Source of the DNA: Candidatus Magasanikiibacteriota bacterium
GTDB taxonomy: Bacteria; Patescibacteriota; Patescibacteriia; Magasanikbacterales; UBA922
Assembly (NCBI GenBank): GCA_041665025.1
Contig: JBAYJP010000005.1
Span: 11,056 to 75,055 of the forward strand
Reading direction: 5' to 3'
DNA length: 64,000 nucleotides
Shown here: positions 5,679 to 41,501 of the stretch, piece after piece
Numbering within the stretch: position 1 is the stretch's first letter
How the letters are laid out: every line of letters begins with the position of its first letter
Notes under the pieces: generated by a model
Told to the model about the DNA's origin: nothing
The model's input: the letters and a program-made list of their open reading frames with translations, nothing else
The model's database searches: none
Translations under genes and position numbers: made by a program

Positions 5679-5984
5679 ATGGGCGTAGAGGACAGTAGAG
5701 GGGATCAAATCGAAGTCTCAAAGGTAGGCGCAGGCATGATTACCATTCAGGACCCTTTGGGGAAAGAGCAGGTAGTTTTATCAGTAGCCAAAGTCACCTA
5801 TCGAGATGGGTCACAAAGATTTTGTCTTGATTCTCATTTTATGGGTTTGCAAATTAGTGCGGATACACACCGGGACCTGGAATATACGCTTATGGAAGCT
5901 CAAGGTATGTTGGCACAAGGAATTTCGGCGCGTGCGGTGGCGGAAGATCTCCAGGGGAGCGGAGTGACGTATTTAGCACAGTAA
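5679..5984 (+). CDS. Hypothetical protein of 101 aa, moderately GC-elevated
   Basis: Intact ORF with an ATG start and no recognisable motifs. Visually about 48-50% GC against about 40% in the neighbours. Confidence 0.35.
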   Translation: MGVEDSRGDQIEVSKVGAGMITIQDPLGKEQVVLSVAKVTYRDGSQRFCLDSHFMGLQISADTHRDLEYTLMEAQGMLAQGISARAVAEDLQGSGVTYLAQ

Positions 5985-6005
5985 TAACGAGAAAAAATCT
6001 ATTAT

Positions 6006-6040
6006 AAAAAATCCACTCCGAGGACCGAAGTGGATTTTTG
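6006..6040. terminator. Bidirectional terminator hairpin aatccact...agtggatt between convergent genes
   Basis: 8 bp stem aatccact/agtggatt with a GC-rich loop, an A-run before and a T-run after. Lies between the convergent genes 5679..5984 (+) and 6094..7176 (-). Confidence 0.4.
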
Positions 6041-6093
6041 TTCACATGTGGTGGACTTATTTTAATGTAGCAGTGAATGGAATTCTAACTGTA

Positions 6094-7176
6094 TTAACGT
6101 CTGTCTATCATAGGTCTCTCTTTTTCTGTACGCATTGCATGTAATATCTCGGTTTCTCTTATAACATCACCTTGTATTTCTCCACGTAAATTACCTTCGG
6201 CGAGCGCCCTCATTTCATCTCTATCATCAGTTCTACTCAAAATATAATTTGTTTTCATCATCAATTGCTGGAAATCAGGTACACCCCTCAAACGAATCCA
6301 ATCATTACTAGGTGGTTGATTCTCGTTATCAGCAAAAAATACCGTTTGGTCATGAGTTAAATCCCGCAGCATATGAAAGAACTTGCTTTCAGTAGTTAAT
6401 GGCGGGTCTTTGGGCAAATCATATAAAAGAATGGCATCTGCATCCCCACAGGCTTTCAATTTTGCTTCTATAGAACTCGCCAATTCTCCAGTAACTCGAA
6501 TGGGTACTATATTTTTTTGTTGCAAAGCATTAAAATGAAATTCTCCATCATCATGACGCAGTAATCTGTCCTCATCTACTTCAATACTACCAGCATTAAT
6601 TCTTGCTATAGGCTGTTCAGTAACCCCATCAAACGCATCTACATTACTTGCCGAATACTTACGTGCATGTGTACCCCGAAAGAGTTTTCCATGAAAACAG
6701 ACCGAGACTTCGTCAACAGGAGGAATTTCATTGCCTGAACGTGCTGCAACTTCAATTGCATCGAGCAAATTCCGCGGACCGTCAGAATCTTTCTCAGCAG
6801 CAGGGGTCATAGAGCCGGTAAATACAACAGGTCGCTTAAGCCCTTCCAATTGGTAACTCATCGCAGCAGCAGACGGACCCATGGTATCGGTACCAAAAAT
6901 TACCACAATTCCATCGTAATTTTGATGTGTTTCAGCAATGTTTTTAGCAAGTAGGTTATAGAATTCAAGATTAGCATCGGACGAGTCAATAAAACGACCA
7001 CCTGGCTTGAATTCCTCCCACTCCAAATTGTATGGGACATCCTGTAATTCAGGAATATTTTTTTGTAATTCTTCAAGTGTCCCTGGCTTTAAGCCTCCAT
7101 TTACAGAGGACGGTTTCATTCCTATCGTTCCTCCAGTATAGATTACGAGAATGTTCCTTTCATTTGGCTGTTTCAT
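6094..7176 (-). CDS. L-asparaginase family protein
   Basis: N-terminal ILVIYTGGTIGM (the asparaginase TGGTIAG motif) and a second conserved block GIVVIFGTDTM. 360 aa. Confidence 0.75.
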   Translation of the reverse strand: MKQPNERNILVIYTGGTIGMKPSSVNGGLKPGTLEELQKNIPELQDVPYNLEWEEFKPGGRFIDSSDANLEFYNLLAKNIAETHQNYDGIVVIFGTDTMGPSAAAMSYQLEGLKRPVVFTGSMTPAAEKDSDGPRNLLDAIEVAARSGNEIPPVDEVSVCFHGKLFRGTHARKYSASNVDAFDGVTEQPIARINAGSIEVDEDRLLRHDDGEFHFNALQQKNIVPIRVTGELASSIEAKLKACGDADAILLYDLPKDPPLTTESKFFHMLRDLTHDQTVFFADNENQPPSNDWIRLRGVPDFQQLMMKTNYILSRTDDRDEMRALAEGNLRGEIQGDVIRETEILHAMRTEKERPMIDRR

Positions 7177-7319
7177 AATAGGTCAGTTAATTAGACGTAT
7201 TTTACTAAATCTACAGTCTTTATGCAATCTATTTGTCATATCAAACTGGTATTTTTGGTTATAAATATTAAAGAGAGGTTATAATTTTTAAGTGATTTAA
7301 TATTATGGTTTTATTCATC

Positions 7320-7816: not shown

Positions 7817-9568
7817 ATGTTGTTACCCAAACGTCTCCTCTCGTTCTTTTTGGCTCTTTCACTTTTATTCACATTTTTCGGTAGTACGCTTGTATCTCCT
7901 GCAGTCGCATATGCAGCATCAAGCGTCTCTATGTCCCTCACTAGTAGTAATGCTCTTTTCGTCAATGAAACTAATTCACTCACTGTTTCAATGAAAGCAA
8001 ACAGTGCACTGCAAGACGCGCTTGTTGATTTCGAATTATACAATAGTTCAAATCAGCGAGTCGTTCAAAAAGTTTTTGAGCATGAAACTCTCGGGTTAAA
8101 TCAATCTCGTATATACACCCTTTCGTGGAAACCAACACAAACAGGCACGTATACATTGCGAACTGGTGTATTTACATCAAACTGGTCATCACTTATTCAA
8201 TGGGAAAATACAGCAGCAACATTTTCAGTGCAGGTTCGTCCTGTAGTAGCAACAACCGTGGCGCCTGCTTCTGCTGCAACAACCCAAGTGTGGTGGCCAT
8301 CTCAAAATGCGACCATATCAGGAGTACAACCATTTAAGGCTGTTCTTTCGGCTACGTCGCTTTCAGATTACCAGATGTATTGGCAGGTCGACGGCGGGCA
8401 GTTGAATTTTATGAACAATAGTTTAGTTGATGTTCCGCACAAAGAATCTCTGGTAAATGTATCGGGGTGGAATTGGAGAGGAAACGGCCCTTATACATTG
8501 AACTTTGTGGCAAAGAATGCAAGCGGTCAGACGATTGCACAAAAACAGGTAGCAATCTACATAGGCACATCTTCACAACAGACAGCGCCTGCGACACCTA
8601 CAACTCCTGTGGTAAATACAACCCAAACACAGACGACCCAAACAACAACTTCCCCTCCAACTCAAACATCTGCACCCGCACAAACTGCTACAGCGCCAAC
8701 CGCGACATCTGTTTCTGGTTTGTATGTAAATCCAAATTCTCCCGCATTGGTTCAAGCGCAACAATGGCAGAGTTCTCGTCCTGCTGATGCCGCACTTATG
8801 AAAAAAATTGGTGACCAGCCAAGCGCGCGATGGTTTGGAAACTGGAATGCCAATATATATACAGATGTAAAAAGTTATGTAGACGCTGCGGCAAGTGCTA
8901 ATGCGACTCCAGTACTTATTGCGTATAATATTCCTCAACGCGACTGCGGTGGATATTCTGCAGGTGGTAGTAATGATCCAGCCGTGTATCGCCAGTGGAT
9001 CACAGATATGGCGCGTGGTATTGGCAATAGAAGCGCAATGATTATTCTCGAACCAGATTCTGTTGCTTTGAATGATTGTCTTTCTTCCACTGACAAACAA
9101 ACTCGTTTTGGTTTGCTCTCGTACGCCGTGGATACACTCAAAGCAAATTCAAACGCACGCGTATATATTGATGCAGGACACTCAAGCTGGGTAGGCGCGC
9201 AAGATATGGCAAATCGTTTGACACAAGCAGGTATTGCACGCGCAAATGGTTTTGCGCTCAATGTGTCAAATTTTTATTCGACACAAGACAACGTGAATTA
9301 TGGAACGCAAGTCTCTCAATATCTTAATGGTAAACACTTTGTCGTGGATACGTCACGGAATGGACGCGGATCAAATGGCCAATGGTGCAATCCGTCTGAT
9401 AGAGCGCTTGGTGAAAAGCCAACACTTAGTACAGGCAATTCACTTGTTGATGGGTTCTTGTGGCTTAAGACTCCAGGTGAATCAGATGGCTCATGTAATG
9501 GTGGACCTTCGGCAGGGCAGTGGTGGCCTGAATATGCGCTTGGGTTAGCACAGAGATCATCATGGTAA
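7817..9568 (+). CDS. Secreted glycoside hydrolase family 6 (cellulase/cellobiohydrolase-like) with a signal peptide and N-terminal Ig-like and X domains
   Basis: Signal peptide, then an Ig-like domain, then domain X (GVQPFKAVLSATSLSDYQMYWQVDGGQLNFM...). A Thr/Gln/Pro linker follows. The GH6 catalytic domain carries YNIPQRDCGGYSAGG, ILEPDSVAL, YIDAGHSSW and FLWLKTPGESDG. Confidence 0.8.
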   Translation: MLLPKRLLSFFLALSLLFTFFGSTLVSPAVAYAASSVSMSLTSSNALFVNETNSLTVSMKANSALQDALVDFELYNSSNQRVVQKVFEHETLGLNQSRIYTLSWKPTQTGTYTLRTGVFTSNWSSLIQWENTAATFSVQVRPVVATTVAPASAATTQVWWPSQNATISGVQPFKAVLSATSLSDYQMYWQVDGGQLNFMNNSLVDVPHKESLVNVSGWNWRGNGPYTLNFVAKNASGQTIAQKQVAIYIGTSSQQTAPATPTTPVVNTTQTQTTQTTTSPPTQTSAPAQTATAPTATSVSGLYVNPNSPALVQAQQWQSSRPADAALMKKIGDQPSARWFGNWNANIYTDVKSYVDAAASANATPVLIAYNIPQRDCGGYSAGGSNDPAVYRQWITDMARGIGNRSAMIILEPDSVALNDCLSSTDKQTRFGLLSYAVDTLKANSNARVYIDAGHSSWVGAQDMANRLTQAGIARANGFALNVSNFYSTQDNVNYGTQVSQYLNGKHFVVDTSRNGRGSNGQWCNPSDRALGEKPTLSTGNSLVDGFLWLKTPGESDGSCNGGPSAGQWWPEYALGLAQRSSW

Positions 9569-17828: not shown

Positions 17829-19550
17829 TTAATATACATTTATGCTTCTTGTCCCTTGAGCGATCACACTACCCTGTGCATTCTTTGCAATAAAGGTGAT
17901 ATTGTATGGTCCGGCACCTTTCCAGCCCCACAAACTCACGTCAACCAATGCTTCTTTGTGCGGATAATCTACGTTGCTATCTGCCATACTGTTTAATTGT
18001 CCGCCATCTACTTGCCAATACATAGTGTATTGGGATACGTCGAGACCTTCTACCATTGCCTTGAATGGTTGGACACCTGATGCCGTTATATCACTGCTCG
18101 GCCACCATATATTCACTGCTCCTGAAGAAGGTGGCGGAGTTGGAGGTGGCGTATTTTGGGTTACTGATATAGATGCCGTGTTTGCATTCCATAAATAATT
18201 TTGTGTCCAGTTACTATTGAATATGCCAATCACGACCGTGTATGATCCAGCTACTGTCGGCGTCCAGTTCATGTTGTATTGTTTTGTCTCACTTGCGATA
18301 AAAATTTGTTTGTCAAAAAATTGTTGGTGTATTTTAGTATTTGAACTGTCATATATCTCAACATCGATTATTGTATTGTTTATTGCGTCTCCAGTATTAG
18401 TGATACTCGCGCCAATTTGTATGGGTGTGTTTATTGTGGTCATGTTTGGTGTTGCGGAGACTGCCTGTGTAAAAGAAATTTTTGTTGGCGGGGGAGTAGG
18501 TGCCGTGCCTCCGGCGAACCATGTGCGCATGGTCGTTTCTGCTAATTTGTTTTGTGGCGTGAAGTCCATATCGCCTTGTCCGCCTGCATTTGGATTGCTA
18601 TTCCAGTCCCACAATTGTACACCAACCATGTAGTCATAATTATTCCAATATGAAAATAATGCTTCATACAGTCGTGATTGATTTCCTTCGTCAAATCCGC
18701 CTCCAGCCCAATAATTAAATGGTTCCCACTGAGCCCAGTTCATACTGCGATATCCAACTTCGGTAAACAAAATAGGTTTATTGTATGCATTACGTAAGTT
18801 TGCAATATCATTTTTATTTATGACGTCCCATTTTTGCGTATATGATTGTACTGACGTGTCGTTTGTCGTGAGGGGGAAATAGGCAGATATACCGACATAA
18901 TCCAACGCATCCCAAAATTTGATTCTATTTTTTTCATCGACCCATTGTCCTTGTGCGCCCCAGTTTGCGCTATATGTTAGTTTTCCGGAAAATACCGTCC
19001 GTGTATAGGCAATGAGGTCGCGCCAATTTTGCGTATTGCTCCCATTTGCATTGTCGGCTGACATATTGATAAGTTCTGCGCCAATGGTCATTTCTTCTAC
19101 ATTGTTTGACTGAGCCAGACTGGCATAATGGCCTAGTACTGTTTTGTAGTTGGCAAACCATCGCGCCCGATCTCCTGGATTTATATTGGCGCGCCACTGT
19201 CCGTCATCTGATTCCAAATGAATTTTTATATTTACTGCCATGCTTTTGCTATGAATATATTGAACACCGGCAGCTAGGGAACCGTCTGTGGGCGTATTCC
19301 AATCCCGGTATAAATCTGTCGTCCATACGTTTGCTTGTTTGTAGGGAATAATGAGTGTAATGTAGTTTGCATTTGCGTTTTTTGCATTGTCAATGGATTT
19401 TTTGAATGAATCGCTGCTAAAGTCTGTATTCCAGTTCGGGCGAATGGAAACACCTTTTTGCCAATTTGAAATAGCAGCCTTACTCATGAGAGGCACTGTA
19501 AGAAATATGGCAGTGATGAGTATATAAATTGTGTATTTTAGTTTGGTCAT
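17829..19550 (-). CDS. Secreted clan GH-A (TIM-barrel) glycoside hydrolase (mannanase/cellulase-like) with C-terminal Ig-like and X domains
   Basis: Start proposed at MTKLKYTIYILITAIFLTVPLMSKA (signal peptide). Candidate acid/base block IGAELIN and nucleophile block ILFTEVGY. The C-terminal X domain GVQPFKAMVEGLDVSQYTMYWQVDGGQLNSM is homologous to the N-terminal region of the GH6 protein at 7817. Confidence 0.55.
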   Translation of the reverse strand: MTKLKYTIYILITAIFLTVPLMSKAAISNWQKGVSIRPNWNTDFSSDSFKKSIDNAKNANANYITLIIPYKQANVWTTDLYRDWNTPTDGSLAAGVQYIHSKSMAVNIKIHLESDDGQWRANINPGDRARWFANYKTVLGHYASLAQSNNVEEMTIGAELINMSADNANGSNTQNWRDLIAYTRTVFSGKLTYSANWGAQGQWVDEKNRIKFWDALDYVGISAYFPLTTNDTSVQSYTQKWDVINKNDIANLRNAYNKPILFTEVGYRSMNWAQWEPFNYWAGGGFDEGNQSRLYEALFSYWNNYDYMVGVQLWDWNSNPNAGGQGDMDFTPQNKLAETTMRTWFAGGTAPTPPPTKISFTQAVSATPNMTTINTPIQIGASITNTGDAINNTIIDVEIYDSSNTKIHQQFFDKQIFIASETKQYNMNWTPTVAGSYTVVIGIFNSNWTQNYLWNANTASISVTQNTPPPTPPPSSGAVNIWWPSSDITASGVQPFKAMVEGLDVSQYTMYWQVDGGQLNSMADSNVDYPHKEALVDVSLWGWKGAGPYNITFIAKNAQGSVIAQGTRSINVY

Positions 19551-19564
19551 AAAATTTAAGTTAT

Positions 19565-19641
19565 CTAGGTTGGCTAAGTTGACTAAGTGTAAATTGTACA
19601 CATTTTTGAACTTAGGTACTTAGTTAACTTAGCCAACCTAG
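19565..19641. repeat. Perfect 16 bp inverted repeat CTAGGTTGGCTAAGTT ... AACTTAGCCAACCTAG between two genes of the polysaccharide cluster
   Basis: Arms at 19565-19580 and 19626-19641 with a 45 nt loop. Lies between the stop of the GT-C/GH8 gene and the start of the GH-A gene. Confidence 0.5.
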
Positions 19642-19650
19642 TAAACTCAG

Positions 19651-22245
19651 TTAGTTTTTCGTCAACTGTGTCTGCCACAAATTTGGCGTATTATTTGCAT
19701 ACAGCGCTGTGGCAAACCATGCCCAGTTTTGTGTGTAATAGTTTTTGTCATCGCCCCACTTGCCATTGTGGAACATAGACCAAAAATGATCGCTATATAT
19801 ATCTATTGATTTTTCCGATTGAGAAATATCGAGCGCCGAAAGTGCTCCTGCGTATGTGCTAATGTCATCAAAATTTGCCACAGGGGTTCCGTCTATTTTG
19901 TATCGAGCCTCAATAACATGATCTCTGTCCCATTGTTTGATATAAAATTTTGACACTTGCTCAAGATATGCTTTAGCTTCTGTACTTTCAAACCATTTGG
20001 CATCAAGGGCGAGCCGCCACATGAGACGGAATGCATCGTAGCCATAAATATCGGCGTCTTTTTTTACATGCTCGGCGCTTTCGTAATCTCCCAAGCTCGT
20101 AAGCAAAAACCAATTGGGCACCAGTCCAGTATTATTTTTAAATGTAGGCGATTGCTTTAGTTGAGCTAGTATCACGTACACATCTTCGGCAAGCGCATCC
20201 CAGTTATGGTTTTTATCTATCTGAGCAAATATTTTGTATGATGCCGGAGAAAAATATGATGGATTGATAAGATAACCCGTCTTTGTGTCAGCGCCAGACG
20301 TGAGATAGAGTGTACCATCTACTTCGATAACTCGATTTTCCCAAATACTGTCGAGTATTTCACGGGCGCGTTCCATATATATAGGATCTCCCCACTGCTT
20401 GTAGGCAAACAAAAGTGCAAGTGCGATATCCTCGTCCGCGTCAGTTGCAGTAGAGTAATCCAAAATTGCCTCCGTGCCAGTCGTATTTTTTCCATAGAGC
20501 CACGCGTAGAGTTTGTTACCAGGTAATTTCATGTTATCTTCGGACCAGGAAAATACGCGATCAAATGTTTTTTTGTCTCCCTGCCATACGGCACGTAATA
20601 GTGAATATGATTGTCCCTCAGAGGTTGTAATATTATCTGCTTTAGGATCAATTGTCTTTCCATCTCGCGTAATAAATTCCTTTTTGTATACTTCCCAGCT
20701 TTTCTGGATCACACCATCTTTATTATTTACTTCGCGTATTTCGACCGGGTATCCTTCATCTAAAATATCATAATTATTAAATCGTTTGATAACATGTGAA
20801 TTTTCATATGCTGTCTGCACGAGCGGCAGGGTATCATTGTAGATATTTATGGTAAGTGCTGGAGTAAATAGGAGGTAATCTATACGTTTCCAATCATTAT
20901 TTAAAACAGCGTATTGAACTTGCGGATCAGTGTCTGCTTTCCAATAATAATGTATATTTGTCTTCTCAATATCTTTGAGATTGGGATTTAAATCGACAAA
21001 TGGGTAGTTGTCAATGAGTGTTACTGAACGGGGATTCAAATTATCTTTTACCCATCCAACTGCCTGCACTTGGTTGTACGTTTGGTCAAGAGAAAAAATA
21101 TACCATTTTTGAGAAAGTTCAAAGACGAGTATCAGTGAAATGATTGAAAGTATTCCGAAACGTATAGGCATAAGTGCCACCGGATCTTTTTTCTTCACCC
21201 TTTCTATCACCTGATCTGATAGTAATGCGATACTTATAGAGAAAAGGGCCATGAGCGGTATGATATACCAGTCGAGAACTTGTCCTCTCAGTATAAAGAG
21301 TGTATAGGATAGGCTCATGAGTGCGATCAAAAAAGACCATTTTTTTCTAAATAATAGTACATGTATTATGCTTGCACCGGCTCCTAAAAATAAAAAGAAC
21401 GGCGCGTATGGTAGCCATGTGGTTTGCAATGAGTAGAGAAACGTACTGGTTGATTGCCGATTGATATGAAATCCAAGTGCCTCCATAAGGCTGACGTGGG
21501 GCTGTGTTCCTCCAAGCACTGTACCGCTTGGAAAAAATTCTCCTTTGAGGAGTGCAAATACGGGGTACATTGATATGGCAAGTGAAGCAATGCTTATCCA
21601 TACGACAATGGCAAAATGTTTATTATTTTTGTGTGCTTGCAGTGCGATAATGGCACTCATGCCGACGATAAAAGGGGCTGCGGATTCTTTGGTAAGCACG
21701 GCCATGGCAAACATTATCGCGCTTGCAATGATATATTTAAGACGCATAGGCTTGGTCAGAAGATAGAGCGACCACAAGAACCAAAACATCATAATATTAT
21801 CCAAAAGCACTCTACGATGGAGCATAACAGATAGTGGCGTTATGCTAAATAAGATTGCGGCTATGGCAGAAGGAAATTTTCGTCTTGTTATATTCCATGT
21901 TATGTTATATACAAAATACGTTGAGAAAATCTGTAATATTGCCACAAACAGTCGACCGGTATTTGCCGTCAGACCGCCCATAAAAAAGTCATTCCCCGTA
22001 AAGAAATTCCACAAGGCAATAAAGATCCACCCAAGCGGTGCGTGATCATACCAATAGGTGTATGAGGCCAGTTCGTGTTGGTTTATTACCGCCCAGGCCT
22101 GAGACATATACGTGCCCTCGTCTTCTCGATATGAAGGAAATCCAAACATGTTGGTCATATGCACAAAAGCTGACGCAAGAAGTATTGCTAGGAGTATCCA
22201 ATGTTCTTTGAGCCAGTTTGATTGTGCAATTTGTTCTTTGACCAT
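19651..22245 (-). CDS. Fusion protein: N-terminal GT-C-fold membrane glycosyltransferase (PMT/ArnT-like) plus C-terminal glycoside hydrolase family 8
   Basis: 864 aa. About 11 TM helices with a DE motif in the first loop (FPSYREDEGTYMSQAW), as in GT39/GT83. The C-terminal part has the GH8 proton-donor block TTSEGQSYSLL and the GH8 signature ATDADEDIALALLFAYKQW. Confidence 0.7.
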   Translation of the reverse strand: MVKEQIAQSNWLKEHWILLAILLASAFVHMTNMFGFPSYREDEGTYMSQAWAVINQHELASYTYWYDHAPLGWIFIALWNFFTGNDFFMGGLTANTGRLFVAILQIFSTYFVYNITWNITRRKFPSAIAAILFSITPLSVMLHRRVLLDNIMMFWFLWSLYLLTKPMRLKYIIASAIMFAMAVLTKESAAPFIVGMSAIIALQAHKNNKHFAIVVWISIASLAISMYPVFALLKGEFFPSGTVLGGTQPHVSLMEALGFHINRQSTSTFLYSLQTTWLPYAPFFLFLGAGASIIHVLLFRKKWSFLIALMSLSYTLFILRGQVLDWYIIPLMALFSISIALLSDQVIERVKKKDPVALMPIRFGILSIISLILVFELSQKWYIFSLDQTYNQVQAVGWVKDNLNPRSVTLIDNYPFVDLNPNLKDIEKTNIHYYWKADTDPQVQYAVLNNDWKRIDYLLFTPALTINIYNDTLPLVQTAYENSHVIKRFNNYDILDEGYPVEIREVNNKDGVIQKSWEVYKKEFITRDGKTIDPKADNITTSEGQSYSLLRAVWQGDKKTFDRVFSWSEDNMKLPGNKLYAWLYGKNTTGTEAILDYSTATDADEDIALALLFAYKQWGDPIYMERAREILDSIWENRVIEVDGTLYLTSGADTKTGYLINPSYFSPASYKIFAQIDKNHNWDALAEDVYVILAQLKQSPTFKNNTGLVPNWFLLTSLGDYESAEHVKKDADIYGYDAFRLMWRLALDAKWFESTEAKAYLEQVSKFYIKQWDRDHVIEARYKIDGTPVANFDDISTYAGALSALDISQSEKSIDIYSDHFWSMFHNGKWGDDKNYYTQNWAWFATALYANNTPNLWQTQLTKN

Positions 22246-22266: not shown

Positions 22267-24390
22267 TTATATTGACGTCGGGCTGGTTCGTTGGACTGCA
22301 CGATGTGCATTCACATGCGCTGTCTTTTCCCATGTATTTTTATGTCGCATTTCTCTCACTACTGCGCGCAGAGAAGAATAGCCGAGAATTATCTGGTAAG
22401 GTAAAAATGTGATAAGTAATTTAAACATGATCCAGCGTGGGTATTTCAAATTATATTTTTTGGTGAACTCGTATAATCCAATATTGAGAACAATAAAATT
22501 TATCACGAGCATATACAGAGGCAGTATAGACAGCAAAGTAACAAGTATGGGAAGCTTTACGGTAAATATCATGACTATCGACGCAATAATATATATGAAT
22601 AGAAATGCCTGAATTTCGGGCCAGATAAGCATGTATGCCACAAAAAATCTTTGTGAGATAAGCGGCAGGTTTTTCCATTCCTTTTTTTTAAATACTTGCA
22701 AGAATCCTTGATTCCATCTGGTACGTTGTTTGATAAAACTGCCTAATGTTTCGGGCGTTTCTTCCTGGGTCGCGTGAATTTCATCATAAATAATTCTAAT
22801 TTTTGCTCCCGCTGCGCTCAATTTGATCCCGATATCCGCATCTTCAGTGAGGCAATTCGCATCCCATCCTTCAATTTTATGCAGCCATTCACGTTTGAAA
22901 AATACGGTGTTGCCTCCGAGAGGTATGACATGACGTAGAGCAAAGAAATGGAGCACTGATTTAAACCAGAAAAAATATTCAAGAACATTTAAGGTCGAAA
23001 ACCAATTGGATCGGAAATTGATGAGCTGTACTCCAGATTGCACGACATCCGCGTCATCTCGTATCATGACGGTGTTTATCACTTGATAAATATCTGCATG
23101 CGGAGAATCCTCGGCATCAAACACACACACAATGTCGTGATGTGCGTATTCAAGGGCAAAATTAAGTTTGTCTGGTTTGTTTTTTGGTACGTAGGTAGGT
23201 ACAAGTAGCTGGATATTAGTTTTACCAAGCTCTTTAATTTTATGTTGTACAGCCTCTATCGTTTCGTGGTCATCAGATCTACATACGATAATAATCTCTG
23301 TAAGGTGTTCAGGATATTCTATCTGTGCGATTGCCTGCATAGTTTCTGCAATAACATTTTTTTCATGTAAAGCAGGTACAATGGCAGTAAATGAATAGAG
23401 CGGCGCATAAAAACTTTTTGGCGACTGATTTTGTTCAACGCGTGCAGGGTCGTCCCATGCAAACATCATGCCGGTTAGGGTAAATATACTTTGGATTACA
23501 ATAGCGACTGAGAGAAGTAGAAACAGCAAAATAAGAATATTAGATATTGTTGCAATATTGGCTGTTACGAGGTATATAGAGATTGCGGACAAAAGTATTA
23601 TGATGCCGGAGACTATATACCAGGCAAAGGGACTAAATCCAAGATATATTCGTTTAAGCCGTATGCGCAGGGCGTTATATATGAATTCAGATATATCATG
23701 GAATGACATTTTTGATTTGCCACTTGTACGTTCTTCAAAATGAATAGGCACCTCGACAATACGCGCATGGTTGCGTACTAATTCATCAAGCAATCTTATT
23801 TGAAAAGAAAAACCGCGCGCAGGAATAAAATTGAGAAACACTTTTTCAAGTGCTTCTGATTTAATTGCCTTAAATCCGCTTGTGCAGTCGTGTATGGGGT
23901 AAAGCCCCGCAAACCACCTTGCAATCAAGTTCGCAATTTTGCTATTGAGCCAGCGCATTGTAGACCACTGTGGGGGCAGACTTCCACCTTTGATATATCG
24001 AGACCCGAGTGCCACATCTGCGCCGAGTTCGAGTACCTGTAGCATAGGGGGAATATATTGTGGATTGTGAGAGAAGTCCGAATCCATTTGAATAATGGTA
24101 TCTGCCTTAAGAGCATTGAGTGCATAATTAAATCCTCGCTTATACGCAATACCCAATCCTTGTTTGTCTCCTTCAATAAGATGAATATTTTTTCGGGTCT
24201 TTCCGTATTGTTTCACAAGGTATGCCGTACCATCGGGGGAGTGGTCGTCTACTACGACAATATGTGTATCATATTTTTCATGTGGTATTAGTATTGATTT
24301 TATTTTTTTCATTAGGTCCACAATATTCCCACGTTCATTGTACGTAGGGATAATTATCGCAATAGTTTGTTTTTGTCTTGAACCGGGCAT
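22267..24390 (-). CDS. Tandem family-2 glycosyltransferase: N-terminal DPM-synthase-like GT2, TM region, then a processive beta-glycan synthase-like GT2 (D, DxD, TED, QRTRW)
   Basis: Domain 1: IIIPTYNERGNI...VVVDDHSPDGT...DSDFSH. Domain 2: IVPALHEKN...VFDAEDSP...CLTEDADIG...KQRTRWNQG. TM helices lie between the domains and after the second one. Confidence 0.7.
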   Translation of the reverse strand: MPGSRQKQTIAIIIPTYNERGNIVDLMKKIKSILIPHEKYDTHIVVVDDHSPDGTAYLVKQYGKTRKNIHLIEGDKQGLGIAYKRGFNYALNALKADTIIQMDSDFSHNPQYIPPMLQVLELGADVALGSRYIKGGSLPPQWSTMRWLNSKIANLIARWFAGLYPIHDCTSGFKAIKSEALEKVFLNFIPARGFSFQIRLLDELVRNHARIVEVPIHFEERTSGKSKMSFHDISEFIYNALRIRLKRIYLGFSPFAWYIVSGIIILLSAISIYLVTANIATISNILILLFLLLSVAIVIQSIFTLTGMMFAWDDPARVEQNQSPKSFYAPLYSFTAIVPALHEKNVIAETMQAIAQIEYPEHLTEIIIVCRSDDHETIEAVQHKIKELGKTNIQLLVPTYVPKNKPDKLNFALEYAHHDIVCVFDAEDSPHADIYQVINTVMIRDDADVVQSGVQLINFRSNWFSTLNVLEYFFWFKSVLHFFALRHVIPLGGNTVFFKREWLHKIEGWDANCLTEDADIGIKLSAAGAKIRIIYDEIHATQEETPETLGSFIKQRTRWNQGFLQVFKKKEWKNLPLISQRFFVAYMLIWPEIQAFLFIYIIASIVMIFTVKLPILVTLLSILPLYMLVINFIVLNIGLYEFTKKYNLKYPRWIMFKLLITFLPYQIILGYSSLRAVVREMRHKNTWEKTAHVNAHRAVQRTSPTSI

Positions 24391-24602
24391 ATAAGATACT
24401 GGATGATATATATCATACTAAATAAGTATGCTTTATATTCAGCATACTGCCTGCTCCTGCTCGTGTCAAATATTTTTTGCTTAATTTTATACAAACTTGT
24501 CCACAGAATTCACAATTTATACACAGTTAGTATGAATTTAAACTTGACATCAAATTTTTAGTTTATATTATACTAATATTAATAGGCCAGTTCACACGGC
24601 CG

Positions 24603-25661
24603 ATGCGAGGTAGAGACATGGTGTGGAGGGTGATACTTTCCACTATCATAGGAAAAGAAGAGGCCTCACAGTACGAAGTACTGAAAGTCTCTAATTCAGG
24701 GGTTAGTGGAACATGCGTAGTAATCGTCGCGGATCGTAGAACCGGCAAGCGGTATGCGGTCAAGTACGGTGAAAGTAAGGTTCCACTGACAGAACAGGCA
24801 CAAAACACCCGTCGGATGGCTGAGCTATTCGAGGATGTCAGAATACCTCGAATAGTTCTCTGCAGTCCTCAGCTCCTCATGATGGATGCTGTGGAAGGAG
24901 AGACATTGCAGGAAACAGTCGTGAAGGGGATTTACCCAGCTACGAGCCTCATAAAAATTTTTGAGGCAATACTTCGTGCATTTACGGCCGTGTGGAAAAA
25001 GACAGCACAGCCGTATGATGCGGGTGTGGAGCTCCGTCGTGACCCCAAAGGAAGAATTGAGCGTATATGCAGTAGCTTGTGTGAACACGTTTGTGTAGAC
25101 TTGTCTCTTTGTTCATTCAGGGAGACACCACTGTATGTCAATGGTGTACGCTGTGGTGAACTTGGAACAATGTTTCAGGAACTGACCACTGGCTACAAGC
25201 CTCCTCGCAACATAGTCGAATGTCATGGAGATCCAAATGCCGACAACATCATGATCGACAGCCACAAAGATTGGTGGCTTATCGACATGGAGTGGGCTGG
25301 CTTGCATGATTGGAGAATCATGATGAGCCAGCTCATAGGTTGGTGGATCTCGAATGCTACGTACCTCACGAATGGCACGCCTACATGTAGAGTCCGCAAT
25401 AATCGAATTGAGCTTGACTACCGCATCTCTATGCATCCCGTGGCACAGATGCTCATGGAGATAGCGTGGAGATATGCGGCAGAAGTGGCTCAATCTTTGG
25501 GTGAAGTTGACTGGGAAAGACAAATCCAGTATCAGCTCGGAACCCTCTTGCTGAGCCATGTACGGTTTGCGGAGCAAAGAAACCGCTCCGAATACCGTCT
25601 TGTTTTGCTCGGCGAGGCATTCAAGTTCCTCAACAGGGACGCCTGCCTTAGCCGGCCATAG
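24603..25661 (+). CDS. Aminoglycoside-phosphotransferase (APH)/protein-kinase-like fold phosphotransferase, moderately GC-elevated
   Basis: Catalytic loop ECHGDPNADNIMID (Brenner HGDxxxxN) and the DFG-equivalent WWLIDMEWAG. Judged by eye, about 50% GC against about 40% for the neighbours. Confidence 0.55.
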   Translation: MRGRDMVWRVILSTIIGKEEASQYEVLKVSNSGVSGTCVVIVADRRTGKRYAVKYGESKVPLTEQAQNTRRMAELFEDVRIPRIVLCSPQLLMMDAVEGETLQETVVKGIYPATSLIKIFEAILRAFTAVWKKTAQPYDAGVELRRDPKGRIERICSSLCEHVCVDLSLCSFRETPLYVNGVRCGELGTMFQELTTGYKPPRNIVECHGDPNADNIMIDSHKDWWLIDMEWAGLHDWRIMMSQLIGWWISNATYLTNGTPTCRVRNNRIELDYRISMHPVAQMLMEIAWRYAAEVAQSLGEVDWERQIQYQLGTLLLSHVRFAEQRNRSEYRLVLLGEAFKFLNRDACLSRP

Positions 25662-41420: not shown

Positions 41421-41427
41421 AATAAAG

Positions 41428-41501
41428 TGGGCATGGATGGACTTGAACCGTCGACATCCACCTTATAAGGGTGGCGCTCTAACCAACTGAGCTACATGCC
41501 C
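41428..41501 (-). tRNA. tRNA-Ile with a TAT (UAU) anticodon
   Basis: Reverse complement GGGCATGTAGCTCAGTTGGTTAGAGCGCCACCCTTATAAGGTGG...GGTTCAAGTCC...CATGCCCA. Ile-type D-arm; anticodon loop CTTATAA. One C-A mismatch in the T-stem. Confidence 0.7.

Follow-up and report, generated by a model that had tools for sequence, protein, structure and literature searches.

What do a synthase of lipid-linked sugar donors and a polysaccharide synthase do together in one bacterial polypeptide? The question is raised by a gene, hereafter the fusion gene, in a 64,000-nucleotide stretch of contig JBAYJP010000005.1 (the window) from a metagenome-assembled genome (MAG) of Candidatus Magasanikbacteria, a lineage of the Candidate Phyla Radiation (CPR)/Patescibacteria. 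NCBI labels its product, MFA6427699.1, merely 'glycosyltransferase'. A first-pass annotation made from the DNA letters had described it as a single chain with two different family 2 glycosyltransferase (GT2) domains, one DPM1-like and one a processive synthase. Our analyses show that the fusion gene belongs to a larger conserved module that is apparently undescribed. In the reading that we favor, with a probability of about one half, the fusion protein would be a bifunctional inner-membrane enzyme and one half of a two-gene, four-catalytic-domain module for a surface beta-glycan, in which lipid-linked mannose feeds a GT-C glycosyltransferase that modifies the glycan.

The open reading frame (ORF) was found again at the position listed in Table 1, and Pfam separated two distinct GT2 domains in its translation, PF00535 at residues 12-185 (E 4e-36) and PF13641 at residues 334-561 (E 2e-40), the latter overlapped by PF13632 at 420-628 (E 3e-25), with scores far beyond chance. 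The strings on which the annotation relied recurred in our translation, namely, IIIPTYNERGNI at residues 12-23, VVVDDHSPDGT at 45-55 and DSDFSH at 103-108 in the first domain, and DAED at 425-428, TEDAD at 515-519 and QRTRW at 555-559 in the second. Comparison of residues 1-312 with residues 313-707 by BLASTP returned only a 99-residue Rossmann stretch of 28% identity (E 9e-5). Because similarity of this level is common to any two GT-A domains, the protein is not an internal duplication. The motif residues of both halves aligned with catalytic positions of characterized enzymes, those of the Pyrococcus furiosus dolichyl-phosphate mannose synthase (PfDPMS) and of the cellulose synthase BcsA, respectively.

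In a single-sequence search of the PDB, residues 6-244 matched PfDPMS (5mlz, E 2.7e-31), which bears out the DPM1-like character ascribed to the N-terminal ~240 residues. A profile of 33 sequences raised this match to E 3.4e-52, with ArnC and GtrB ranking behind. An AlphaFold2 model of the 707-residue protein, built on an alignment of 33 homologues (mean predicted local distance difference test [pLDDT] 86.7; pTM 0.61), gave the same order in a Foldseek search of the PDB, with dolichyl-phosphate mannose synthases (DPMSs) at E ~1e-17 (top 5mlz, 9ep0 and 5mm1), then ArnC and GtrB. The NCBIfam models nearest to this half were AglJ, Dol-P-hexose transferase, ArnC and PgfS, all far below their equivalog cutoffs. 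Orthology to AglJ or ArnC, like that of the downstream gene product to BcsZ (see below), was rejected on such scores.

The functional residues named for PfDPMS (PMC5526996) were carried over to domain 1 via the 5mlz alignment, and their conservation was read from columns of 33 homologues 42-71% identical to the fusion protein (Table 1). The R117/R131/S135 triad that binds the lipid phosphate, reported as 'conserved in bona fide DPMSs' (PMC5526996), is present. Residues Asp89, Leu69, Phe177 and His94 of PfDPMS have been tied to mannose recognition, the first three of them to the discrimination of mannose from glucose (PMC5526996), and their equivalents in domain 1 are kept as D103, L79, F/Y194 and H108. 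Because DPMS is the best match and the mannose-recognition residues are retained, we favor mannose as the sugar. By sequence, fold and comparison, domain 1 is a DPMS-type polyprenyl-phosphate glycosyltransferase, with a hexosyl specificity that is probably mannosyl. Two local traits resemble eukaryotic DPM1, i.e., a Ser at the position of PfDPMS Q93 and a G-Y-x-F-Q motif near Ser195.

With PfDPMS (type III), DPM1 and mycobacterial Ppm1, domain 1 shares the GT-A fold, the DxD-x-x-H signature, the Arg/Arg/Ser triad, the Arg/Lys pair of the A-loop and the interface helices. Unlike PfDPMS, it is not followed by any transmembrane (TM) domain of the GtrA type; this C-terminal GtrA/DPMS domain, a trait of type-III DPMSs, was not found in the fusion protein by Pfam. 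Instead, the catalytic domain runs on into the TM hairpin with which the synthase begins, and a Ser replaces Lys178. In Ppm1, the fusion partner is an Lnt-like domain. Since the host is bacterial, undecaprenyl phosphate or a different polyprenyl phosphate presumably serves as lipid carrier in place of dolichol.

The second GT2 domain carries synthase motifs, as the annotation had stated. A PDB sequence search aligned residues 287-636 with Rhodobacter BcsA (4hg6/4p00, E 2e-10), and three invariant motifs fell on the BcsA DxD, TED and QxxRW positions (Table 1). The first DD, D373/D374, with D374 invariant and D373 conserved in at least 90% of homologues, corresponds to the BcsA DDG by inspection, but the HMMER alignment did not pair them. 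Foldseek matched the model of this domain to BcsA (4p00; 442 columns, root-mean-square deviation [rmsd] 5.2), to hyaluronan synthases (HAS) and to the 'minimal' PcManGT. The nearest NCBIfam model for the C-terminal half was PgaC/IcaA (E 5e-32), far below the equivalog cutoff, with further matches to PF13506 (GT21, E 4e-7) and HpnI (E 8.5e-10). Domain 2 (residues 320-700) is therefore best described as a minimal membrane GT2 of the BcsA/HAS type. Orthology to BcsA was rejected, as the TIGR03030 (CelA) score was 56.7 bits against a cutoff of 699 and neither a PilZ domain nor an adjacent BcsB-like gene was found. Orthology to PgaC/IcaA was likewise rejected, with 111 bits against 422 for TIGR03937 and neighbors of the GT-C/GH8 (glycoside hydrolase [GH] family 8) type, not a deacetylase or porin.

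Domain 2 has the DD/DxD/TED/QxxRW set and the build of interface helices plus TM helices known from BcsA, PgaC/IcaA, HAS and chitin synthase/NodC. The helices after QRTRW follow the BcsA/HAS order, interface helix 2 (IF2)-TM-TM-IF3-gating loop, with the last TM pair absent. The protein has four TM segments and three interface-type helices, compared with the channel of at least six TM helices in the BcsA/HAS class. Its TM3 carries the polar residues P591 (at least 90%) and Q594 (invariant) in the alignment consensus W-P-E-x-Q. The C-terminal loop after the amphipathic helix contains an invariant W-x-K-T motif where a gating loop would be expected (WEKTAH; Table 1), and H696 and R697 are likewise invariant. 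From its position, unaligned, we infer that WEKTAH is the counterpart of the gating loop, FxVTxK in BcsA/CesA and WGTR in HAS and chitin synthases. The motifs and the fold agree with the term 'processive' of the annotation; processivity itself we infer from them.

AlphaFold2 and hydropathy agreed on four TM segments in total, at residues ~248-312 (TM1-2) and ~583-641 (TM3-4). Two TM helices, not the 'several' originally reported, therefore lie between the domains, and two more follow domain 2. The linker was modeled as helices 230-276 and 282-313, with Kyte-Doolittle hydrophobic segments at 248-312 and a pLDDT of 65-87 across the hairpin; its W312 is conserved in homologues, and the reading frame is unbroken. 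Positive-inside analysis located K/R-rich flanks at residues 244-252, 565-580, 644-656 and 680-707. Given the four TM segments and these flanks, both catalytic domains and both termini are assigned to the cytoplasmic side.

The partner gene immediately downstream encodes a second composite protein. Its N-terminal half scored 33 bits with Pfam PMT (cutoff 22.7), and among 32 homologues a PMT match was obtained for 30 and a PMT_2 match for 22. Two motifs are invariant, D42-E43-G44-x-Y46 directly after TM1 and Y62-T-Y-W-Y-D-H-x-P-x-G-W73. In the PDB, sequence searches with this half returned chance matches only and detected no solved GT-C; in Foldseek, the model of the partner (pLDDT 87, pTM 0.81) had the oligosaccharyltransferase AglB as its first GT-C match. 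With a predicted multi-TM fold and an acidic motif in the first extracytoplasmic loop, the N-terminal half has the defining traits of a PMT/ArnT-type GT-C.

The C-terminal domain of the partner is a BcsZ-like GH8 enzyme by all comparisons. It matched the NCBIfam BcsZ model at E 3e-38, with 132 bits, under the equivalog cutoff of 299. Of its GH8 motif residues, E543, at the place of the catalytic Glu in T-S-E-G-Q, is conserved in at least 90% of homologues, and S542, Q545 and the Asp cluster D602, D604 and D606 show no variation. The Pseudomonas putida enzyme 4q2b, CelA and Escherichia coli BcsZ led its Foldseek matches (TM-score 0.80-0.85), with chitosanases and xylanases behind. With BcsZ/CMCax it shares the (alpha/alpha)6 BcsZ fold (TM-score 0.83-0.85), the GH8 motifs and a gene that adjoins that of the synthase, but it is anchored to a GT-C membrane domain of ~400 residues rather than free in the periplasm. 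This full-length PMT+GH8 architecture recurs in more than 120 homologues. Between the two enzymatic domains sits an alpha/beta domain of ~110 residues for which no family match was obtained and in which D412, D418, K436 and D440 are invariant.

The annotation had called the coupling of a donor synthase to a polymerizing synthase unusual. No characterized example or paper was found in the literature searched; in CPR, however, the fusion is common. More than 100 clusters of full-length homologues (90% identity), 40-71% identical and from many samples and lineages, have the same junction. Database names of fusion and partner homologues read 'glycosyltransferase', 'XagB' or 'glycosyl hydrolase family 8'. 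To describe the neighborhoods, we used three distant homologue loci and 80 further loci from GTDB species representatives, with counts taken over 85 loci; they were read by tblastn with the separate domains from the window and by ORF checks, and their synthase halves were 45-64% identical. The PMT+GH8 gene followed the fusion gene at once in all three distant loci. A GT-C gene lay directly after the synthase half on the same strand in 78 of the 85 loci, or 79 if the divergent L006 is included. It was truly absent from beside the synthase in L019 and L031, and L012, L038 and L054 end too early to judge. From the 78/85 adjacency, we conclude that the synthase and the GT-C form the conserved core, and that the DPMS domain and GH8 are additions. 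Loci with this pair occur in Chloroflexota (Anaerolineae, Chloroflexia, Ktedonobacteria and Thermomicrobiales), in Actinomycetota (Streptomyces, Micromonosporaceae, Pseudonocardiaceae and Rubrobacteraceae) and in Patescibacteria; those of Streptomyces and Ktedonobacteria have no adjacent DPMS or GH8.

Five of the sampled loci (L014, L017, L019, L020 and L074) come from MAGs named 'uncultured Gammaproteobacteria', and in a rough tree their synthase and GT-C/GH8 genes group with those of CPR; these labels may reflect misbinning or mislabeling.

CPR bacteria and a single Anaerolineae MAG (L011) encode the DPMS-like unit within the synthase ORF, and in Chloroflexia, Thermomicrobiales and Rubrobacteraceae it lies directly upstream, outside the synthase frame. 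The operon of the Chloroflexia locus L047 is split into a 284-residue DPM-like GT2, a 459-residue synthase and a 991-residue GT-C+GH8 protein, as determined by ORF and Pfam analyses. In L016, L018 and P0119 (the last found in L004/L005), a complete type-III DPMS with four GtrA-like TM helices precedes the synthase; the L016 unit (5935-7200) matches residues 15-372 of the 5mlz chain at E 5.6e-61. Further fusions emerged from a HMMER search of 1.84 billion cluster representatives followed by Pfam. P0321 and P0327 combine synthase and GT-C in one chain, with GT-Cs orthologous to that of the window (E 2e-29 and 2e-33) and with DEGTY kept. The single chain of P0371 has no synthase and consists of a DPMS-like GT2, which is 43% identical to domain 1, together with GtrA and a PMT_2 GT-C. 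A neighbor-joining tree of the synthase halves was too star-like for a count of fusion events; fused, split and stand-alone forms are intermixed in it.

Several variants stand beside this network. The L016-type units of CPR have Asn where PfDPMS has Arg341. Type-III DPMSs, strictly defined, are stated to be restricted to archaea in a 2026 paper (PMC12992685); the full-length PfDPMS-like units of L016, L018 and P0119 are encoded in CPR bacteria. A variant of ~900 residues (L011 5542-8256; P0107-P0118) carries an N-terminal, phosphothreonine-binding FHA domain before the DPMS-synthase fusion, which hints at Ser/Thr kinase signaling instead of the c-di-GMP/PilZ control of BcsA. Two Anaerolineae loci, L025 (3892-7296) and L029 (3895-7227), encode synthases of 1110-1134 residues with N-terminal SH3_3 and bacterial Ig domains and no DPMS domain. 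In the metagenomic protein P0246 (1447 residues), the module has gained an oxidoreductase, as an FAD amine-oxidase-like domain shares the chain with a GtrA/DPMS TM domain, a GT2 and the synthase.

The hydrolase partner varies by lineage, being GH8 in CPR and some Chloroflexota, with none in Streptomyces. In L006 (873-5617, Candidatus Paceibacter sp.), the genes divergent from the fusion gene encode, in this order, a GH113 enzyme, a PMT-type GT-C that lacks GH8, and an undecaprenyl-diphosphate synthase; at this locus, GH113 seems to stand in for GH8. In Ktedonospora formicarum (L071, 4115-11243), a cultivable organism, a weakly GH44/GH39-like protein and a GH5 cellulase with the cellulose-binding module CBM3 flank the synthase-GT-C pair, a context suggestive of a product resembling cellulose. 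The attached or adjacent hydrolase families are thus swapped between lineages, and all act on beta-linked glycans. A Ser/Thr kinase-WD40 protein is encoded upstream of the pair in L071.

How could these activities work together? The domain identities, the topology and the genomic linkage are established by sequence, fold and comparison. In the mechanism that we favor, domain 1 would load a hexose, most likely mannose from GDP-mannose, onto polyprenyl phosphate at the inner leaflet. The lipid-linked sugar would then flip, a step that the fused GtrA/DPMS TM domain could perform in the sister architectures; the TM domain of DPMS itself has been discussed as a possible flippase (PMC12992685). Domain 2 would polymerize and extrude a beta-linked, probably beta-1,4, glycan. 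At the outer face, the GT-C of the partner would spend the flipped lipid-sugar on the nascent glycan or on something attached to it, and the fused GH8 would trim or free the chain. Because GH8 is fused to the GT-C, the substrate at hand for the latter would be the polymer of domain 2. A synthase-dependent exopolysaccharide pathway would in this way be hard-wired to an extracytoplasmic glycosylation system of the GtrB/GtrA/GT-C type, and the fusion of donor synthase and polymerase in small CPR genomes would provide the pathway with a private donor supply. All domains of the module come from well-known families, and the chemistry that we propose is conventional.

Three-component systems (GtrB/GtrA/GtrC; CsbB-GtcA-YfhO; ArnC-ArnE/F-ArnT; Ppm1-Pmt) provide the precedent, with a polyprenyl-phosphate glycosyltransferase and a GT-C in one operon (background in PMC11127046 and PMC8035078). 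In the window, domain 1 and the PMT-type GT-C are likewise encoded together, in genes 21 bp apart. The known systems decorate polymers of the Wzy, ABC-transporter or LtaS routes, lipid A or proteins, and in the literature searched we found neither a three-component system tied to a synthase-dependent polymer nor a donor synthase fused to a polymerase. The same literature held no description of the fusion, of the synthase-GT-C partnership or of a cellulose-like system in CPR/Saccharibacteria; an Actinoplanes paper deals with other clusters. Beside the fusion gene, the GT-C gene occupies the position of BcsB- or PgaD-type partners. The undecaprenyl-diphosphate synthase gene beside the L006 cassette was counted in favor of this mechanism.

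Several observations weigh against it. Lys178 of PfDPMS, which touches both the mannose and the phosphoester (PMC5526996), is Ser195 in the fusion protein, in a variable column, and is the sole mapped contact to be lost. Domain 2 stops at four TM helices, without the final pair of BcsA/HAS, so that channel and processivity are uncertain, and its structural neighbor PcManGT is not known to be a polymerase. The classical role of PMT-family GT-Cs is the O-mannosylation of proteins rather than the decoration of glycans. A GtrA-like flippase, found in fused form in L016, L018, P0119 and P0371, is absent from the fusion protein, and tblastn queries with the L016 and L018 GtrA domains detected none elsewhere in the window. 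The GT-C of P0371 has no detectable relationship to that of the window. The identities proposed here for the sugars, the polymer and the acceptor of the GT-C are putative, and the comparative arguments are equally compatible with a lipid primer. GDP-mannose pathway genes were absent from the ~40 ORFs of the window that were scanned, but this carries no information, as the contig has 440 kb and the window 64 kb.

The alternative that survives best, unlikely in our view but the most serious competitor, is lipid-primed synthesis, in which domain 2 would elongate the lipid-hexose made by domain 1 and the GT-C would transfer the glycan en bloc or GH8 would cleave it off. Fusion of an initiating and an elongating activity would be the simplest reason for placing two cytoplasm-facing sites on a short TM hairpin, and a four-TM domain 2, whose putative channel would be open on one side, would let the lipid-anchored reducing end move in the membrane. 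PcManGT, a structural neighbor of domain 2, reportedly takes part in the assembly of lipid-linked N-glycans. GT-Cs do transfer lipid-linked glycans en bloc, AglB being the first GT-C match of the partner model, and all linkage data fit as well as they do under the donor-supply mechanism. However, the complete GtrA/DPMS TM domain of the sister proteins, for which flipping is proposed (PMC12992685), would serve no purpose if elongation and export of the lipid-sugar took place through the synthase. P0371 shows the classical donor-supply arrangement, with a DPMS domain joined to GtrA and GT-C in the absence of a synthase. BcsA, HAS and chitin synthases are established to work without a lipid primer, and PMT and PMT_2, which the partner matches, are monosaccharide-transferring GT-C families. 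The GtrA-bearing sisters and P0371 together favor a flipped monosaccharide donor over an elongated primer.

In a related and rather unlikely scenario, the synthase would prime itself, with the GT-C, in the place of BcsB/PgaD, closing the open side of the translocation path and either transferring the glycan en bloc or leaving its release to GH8. A 'lipid primer plus endoglucanase' route is an old proposal for cellulose synthesis in Agrobacterium and plants, and the self-priming synthase, if true, would be its first natural, genetically hard-wired instance for an enzyme of the cellulose synthase type.

A second alternative would separate what the fusions join. Two unrelated pathways might share the operon, namely, protein O-mannosylation of the Ppm1/Pmt type known from Actinobacteria and production of a cellulose-like exopolysaccharide, with the fusions reflecting co-regulation or genome compaction. 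The GT-C does match the Pfam family of protein O-mannosyltransferases, DPMS and PMT are a canonical pair, and CPR genomes are generally compact and rich in fusions. We nevertheless regard this as doubtful, because the synthase-GT-C adjacency (78/85 loci) includes Streptomyces and Ktedonobacteria with no adjacent DPMS or GH8, because synthase and orthologous GT-C form one polypeptide in P0321 and P0327, and because more than 120 homologues have the GT-C and a polysaccharide hydrolase in one chain. For independent pathways, cross-wise fusions in all combinations would not be expected by chance.

It is improbable that domain 2 is not a polymerase at all. It would then resemble GT21/ceramide glucosyltransferases, HpnI or processive diacylglycerol glycosyltransferases and make a glycolipid anchor, which the GT-C would extend to a lipomannan-like lipoglycan. 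Its PF13506 and HpnI matches and its four TM helices are consistent with this. QxxRW is also established in lipid glycosyltransferases, and GT-C extension of a glycolipid with polyprenyl-phosphate mannose yields lipomannan in corynebacteria and mycobacteria. The best matches of domain 2 are nonetheless polymer synthases (PgaC/IcaA at E 5e-32, BcsA and HAS), and its IF2-TM-TM-IF3-loop layout and conserved P591/Q594 in TM3 fit a glycan channel. Furthermore, endo-acting beta-glycanases of several GH families are attached or adjacent in many lineages, which implies a polymeric beta-glycan substrate.

Very improbable, finally, is a two-site co-polymerase whose GT2 domains add alternating sugars to one chain, as in K4CP or the Pasteurella hyaluronan synthase PmHAS. 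These enzymes likewise have two GT-A/GT2 domains per chain, and Foldseek aligned K4CP over both domains (E 2e-13), yet with an rmsd of 16-17 and a TM-score of 0.23-0.27. In contrast to these soluble or peripheral proteins, the two domains of the fusion protein belong to different functional classes, one using a lipid-phosphate acceptor and the other of the type of channel-forming synthases, and are separated by TM helices, and K4CP-type enzymes have no membrane-embedded synthase domain. Domain 1 keeps the DPMS residues for the Dol-P phosphate and the A-loop, is replaced by a complete DPMS with its TM domain in sister proteins, and is a separate small gene in split operons. We dismiss the idea of a chimeric ORF joining two genes through misassembly or a frameshift: the source is a MAG and both parts are truly separate genes in Chloroflexota, but the junction shared by more than 100 independent full-length homologues effectively refutes it, and the unbroken frame, the W312 linker and the pLDDT of 65-87 over the hairpin speak against it as well.

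The module bears on two pathway types that are usually treated separately, i.e., synthase-dependent secretion (of cellulose, poly-N-acetylglucosamine, hyaluronan or chitin) and three-component lipid-sugar decoration. Here, all pairings connect them (DPMS-synthase, synthase-GT-C, GT-C-GH8 and DPMS-GtrA-GT-C), and the linkage extends over three phyla. This implies an unrecognized class of machines for envelope glycans, with a minimal cellulose-synthase-like enzyme and a GT-C as its obligate partner; that obligatory partner and the complete network of pairwise fusions are what a specialist would find surprising. For CPR/Patescibacteria, whose envelopes have hardly been characterized, the module gives a concrete and testable candidate for a major polymer of the surface, and its core pair is also present in cultivable Streptomyces and Ktedonobacteria amenable to genetics. 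It offers a natural system for asking whether an enzyme of the cellulose synthase type uses a lipid-linked sugar, as a side-chain donor or as a primer.

Table 1. Features of the fusion gene and its surroundings (positions in the window; aa, amino acids of the encoded protein; conservation of PfDPMS-derived residues in 33 homologues)
Feature	Position	Strand	Basis or remark
Fusion gene	22267..24390	minus	ATG start, 707 aa; MFA6427699.1
Domain 1, aa 6-244, GT-A fold then interface helices	23659..24375	minus	PfDPMS match
DSD metal/donor motif, aa 103-105, then H108	24076..24084	minus	on PfDPMS 89-DADLQH-94
E19 (PfDPMS Glu12)			invariant or at least 90%
D49 (PfDPMS Asp39)			invariant or at least 90%
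D103/D105/H108 (PfDPMS Asp89/Asp91/His94)			at least 90%
R131 (PfDPMS Arg117), putative Dol-P phosphate binder			at least 90%
G136 (PfDPMS Gly122)			invariant or at least 90%
R146 (PfDPMS Arg131), putative Dol-P phosphate binder			at least 90%
S150 (PfDPMS Ser135), putative Dol-P phosphate binder			at least 90%
R221 (PfDPMS Arg202), A-loop			invariant or at least 90%
K227 (PfDPMS Lys208), A-loop			invariant or at least 90%
Linker, aa 245-313, end of interface helix and TM1-TM2 hairpin joining the catalytic domains	23452..23658	minus	AlphaFold2, Kyte-Doolittle
Domain 2, aa 321-569, GT2 catalytic domain up to QRTRW interface helix	22684..23430	minus	PF13641, BcsA, Foldseek
DAED, aa 425-428	23107..23118	minus	invariant; on BcsA DxD (DADH)
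TED, aa 515-517	22840..22848	minus	invariant; on BcsA TED catalytic base
QRTRW, aa 555-559	22714..22728	minus	invariant; on BcsA QRGRW acceptor-binding motif
C-terminal part, aa 570-707: TM3, TM4, amphipathic helix 654-681, C-terminal loop	22267..22683	minus	AlphaFold2, hydropathy
WEKTAH, aa 687-692, candidate gating loop	22315..22332	minus	W687, K689, T690, H692 invariant
Partner gene, 864 aa, MFA6427698.1, 'glycosyl hydrolase family 8'	19651..22245	minus	21 bp downstream of fusion gene
Partner aa 1-402, PMT/PMT_2-type GT-C membrane glycosyltransferase	21040..22245	minus	Pfam PMT
Partner aa 403-510, small alpha/beta linker domain between GT-C and GH8	20716..21039	minus	AlphaFold2
Partner aa 511-864, BcsZ-like GH8 endo-beta-1,4-glucanase domain	19651..20715	minus	PF01270, E 4e-45
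Third gene, GH113 (beta-mannanase family)	17829..19601	minus	PF22612, E 1e-45
Sigma-70-like promoter match TTGACA-17-TATGCT	24441..24469	minus	10/12 consensus; upstream of fusion gene

Downstream of the partner gene lies a third gene, for a GH113 enzyme. Its translation probably begins at the Met at 19550, after which comes a hydrophobic segment, a signal or an anchor. GH113 adjoins the cassette only in the window and in L006 (53% identical), with a weak partial match in L067. Because of this restricted occurrence, we rejected it as a core part of the cassette and regard it as accessory. Upstream of the fusion gene, the sigma-70-like promoter match is of a kind no more numerous there than in shuffled sequence.

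Other genes of the window were noted in passing. A 583-residue protein encoded at 7817-9568 (+) has a GH6 domain at residues 316-562 (E 4e-66), so that 15 kb of a small CPR genome encode three beta-glycan-active families, GH6, GH8 and GH113. A 352-residue ORF at 24603-25661 (+), divergent from the fusion gene, gave only a sub-threshold TCAD9 (kinase-like) match, and the 2-kb bin that holds it has a GC content of 0.43, compared with 0.39-0.40 in the neighboring bins. A tRNA-Ile with anticodon TAT, uncommon in bacteria, is encoded at 41427-41501 (-), beside tRNA-Arg(CCG).

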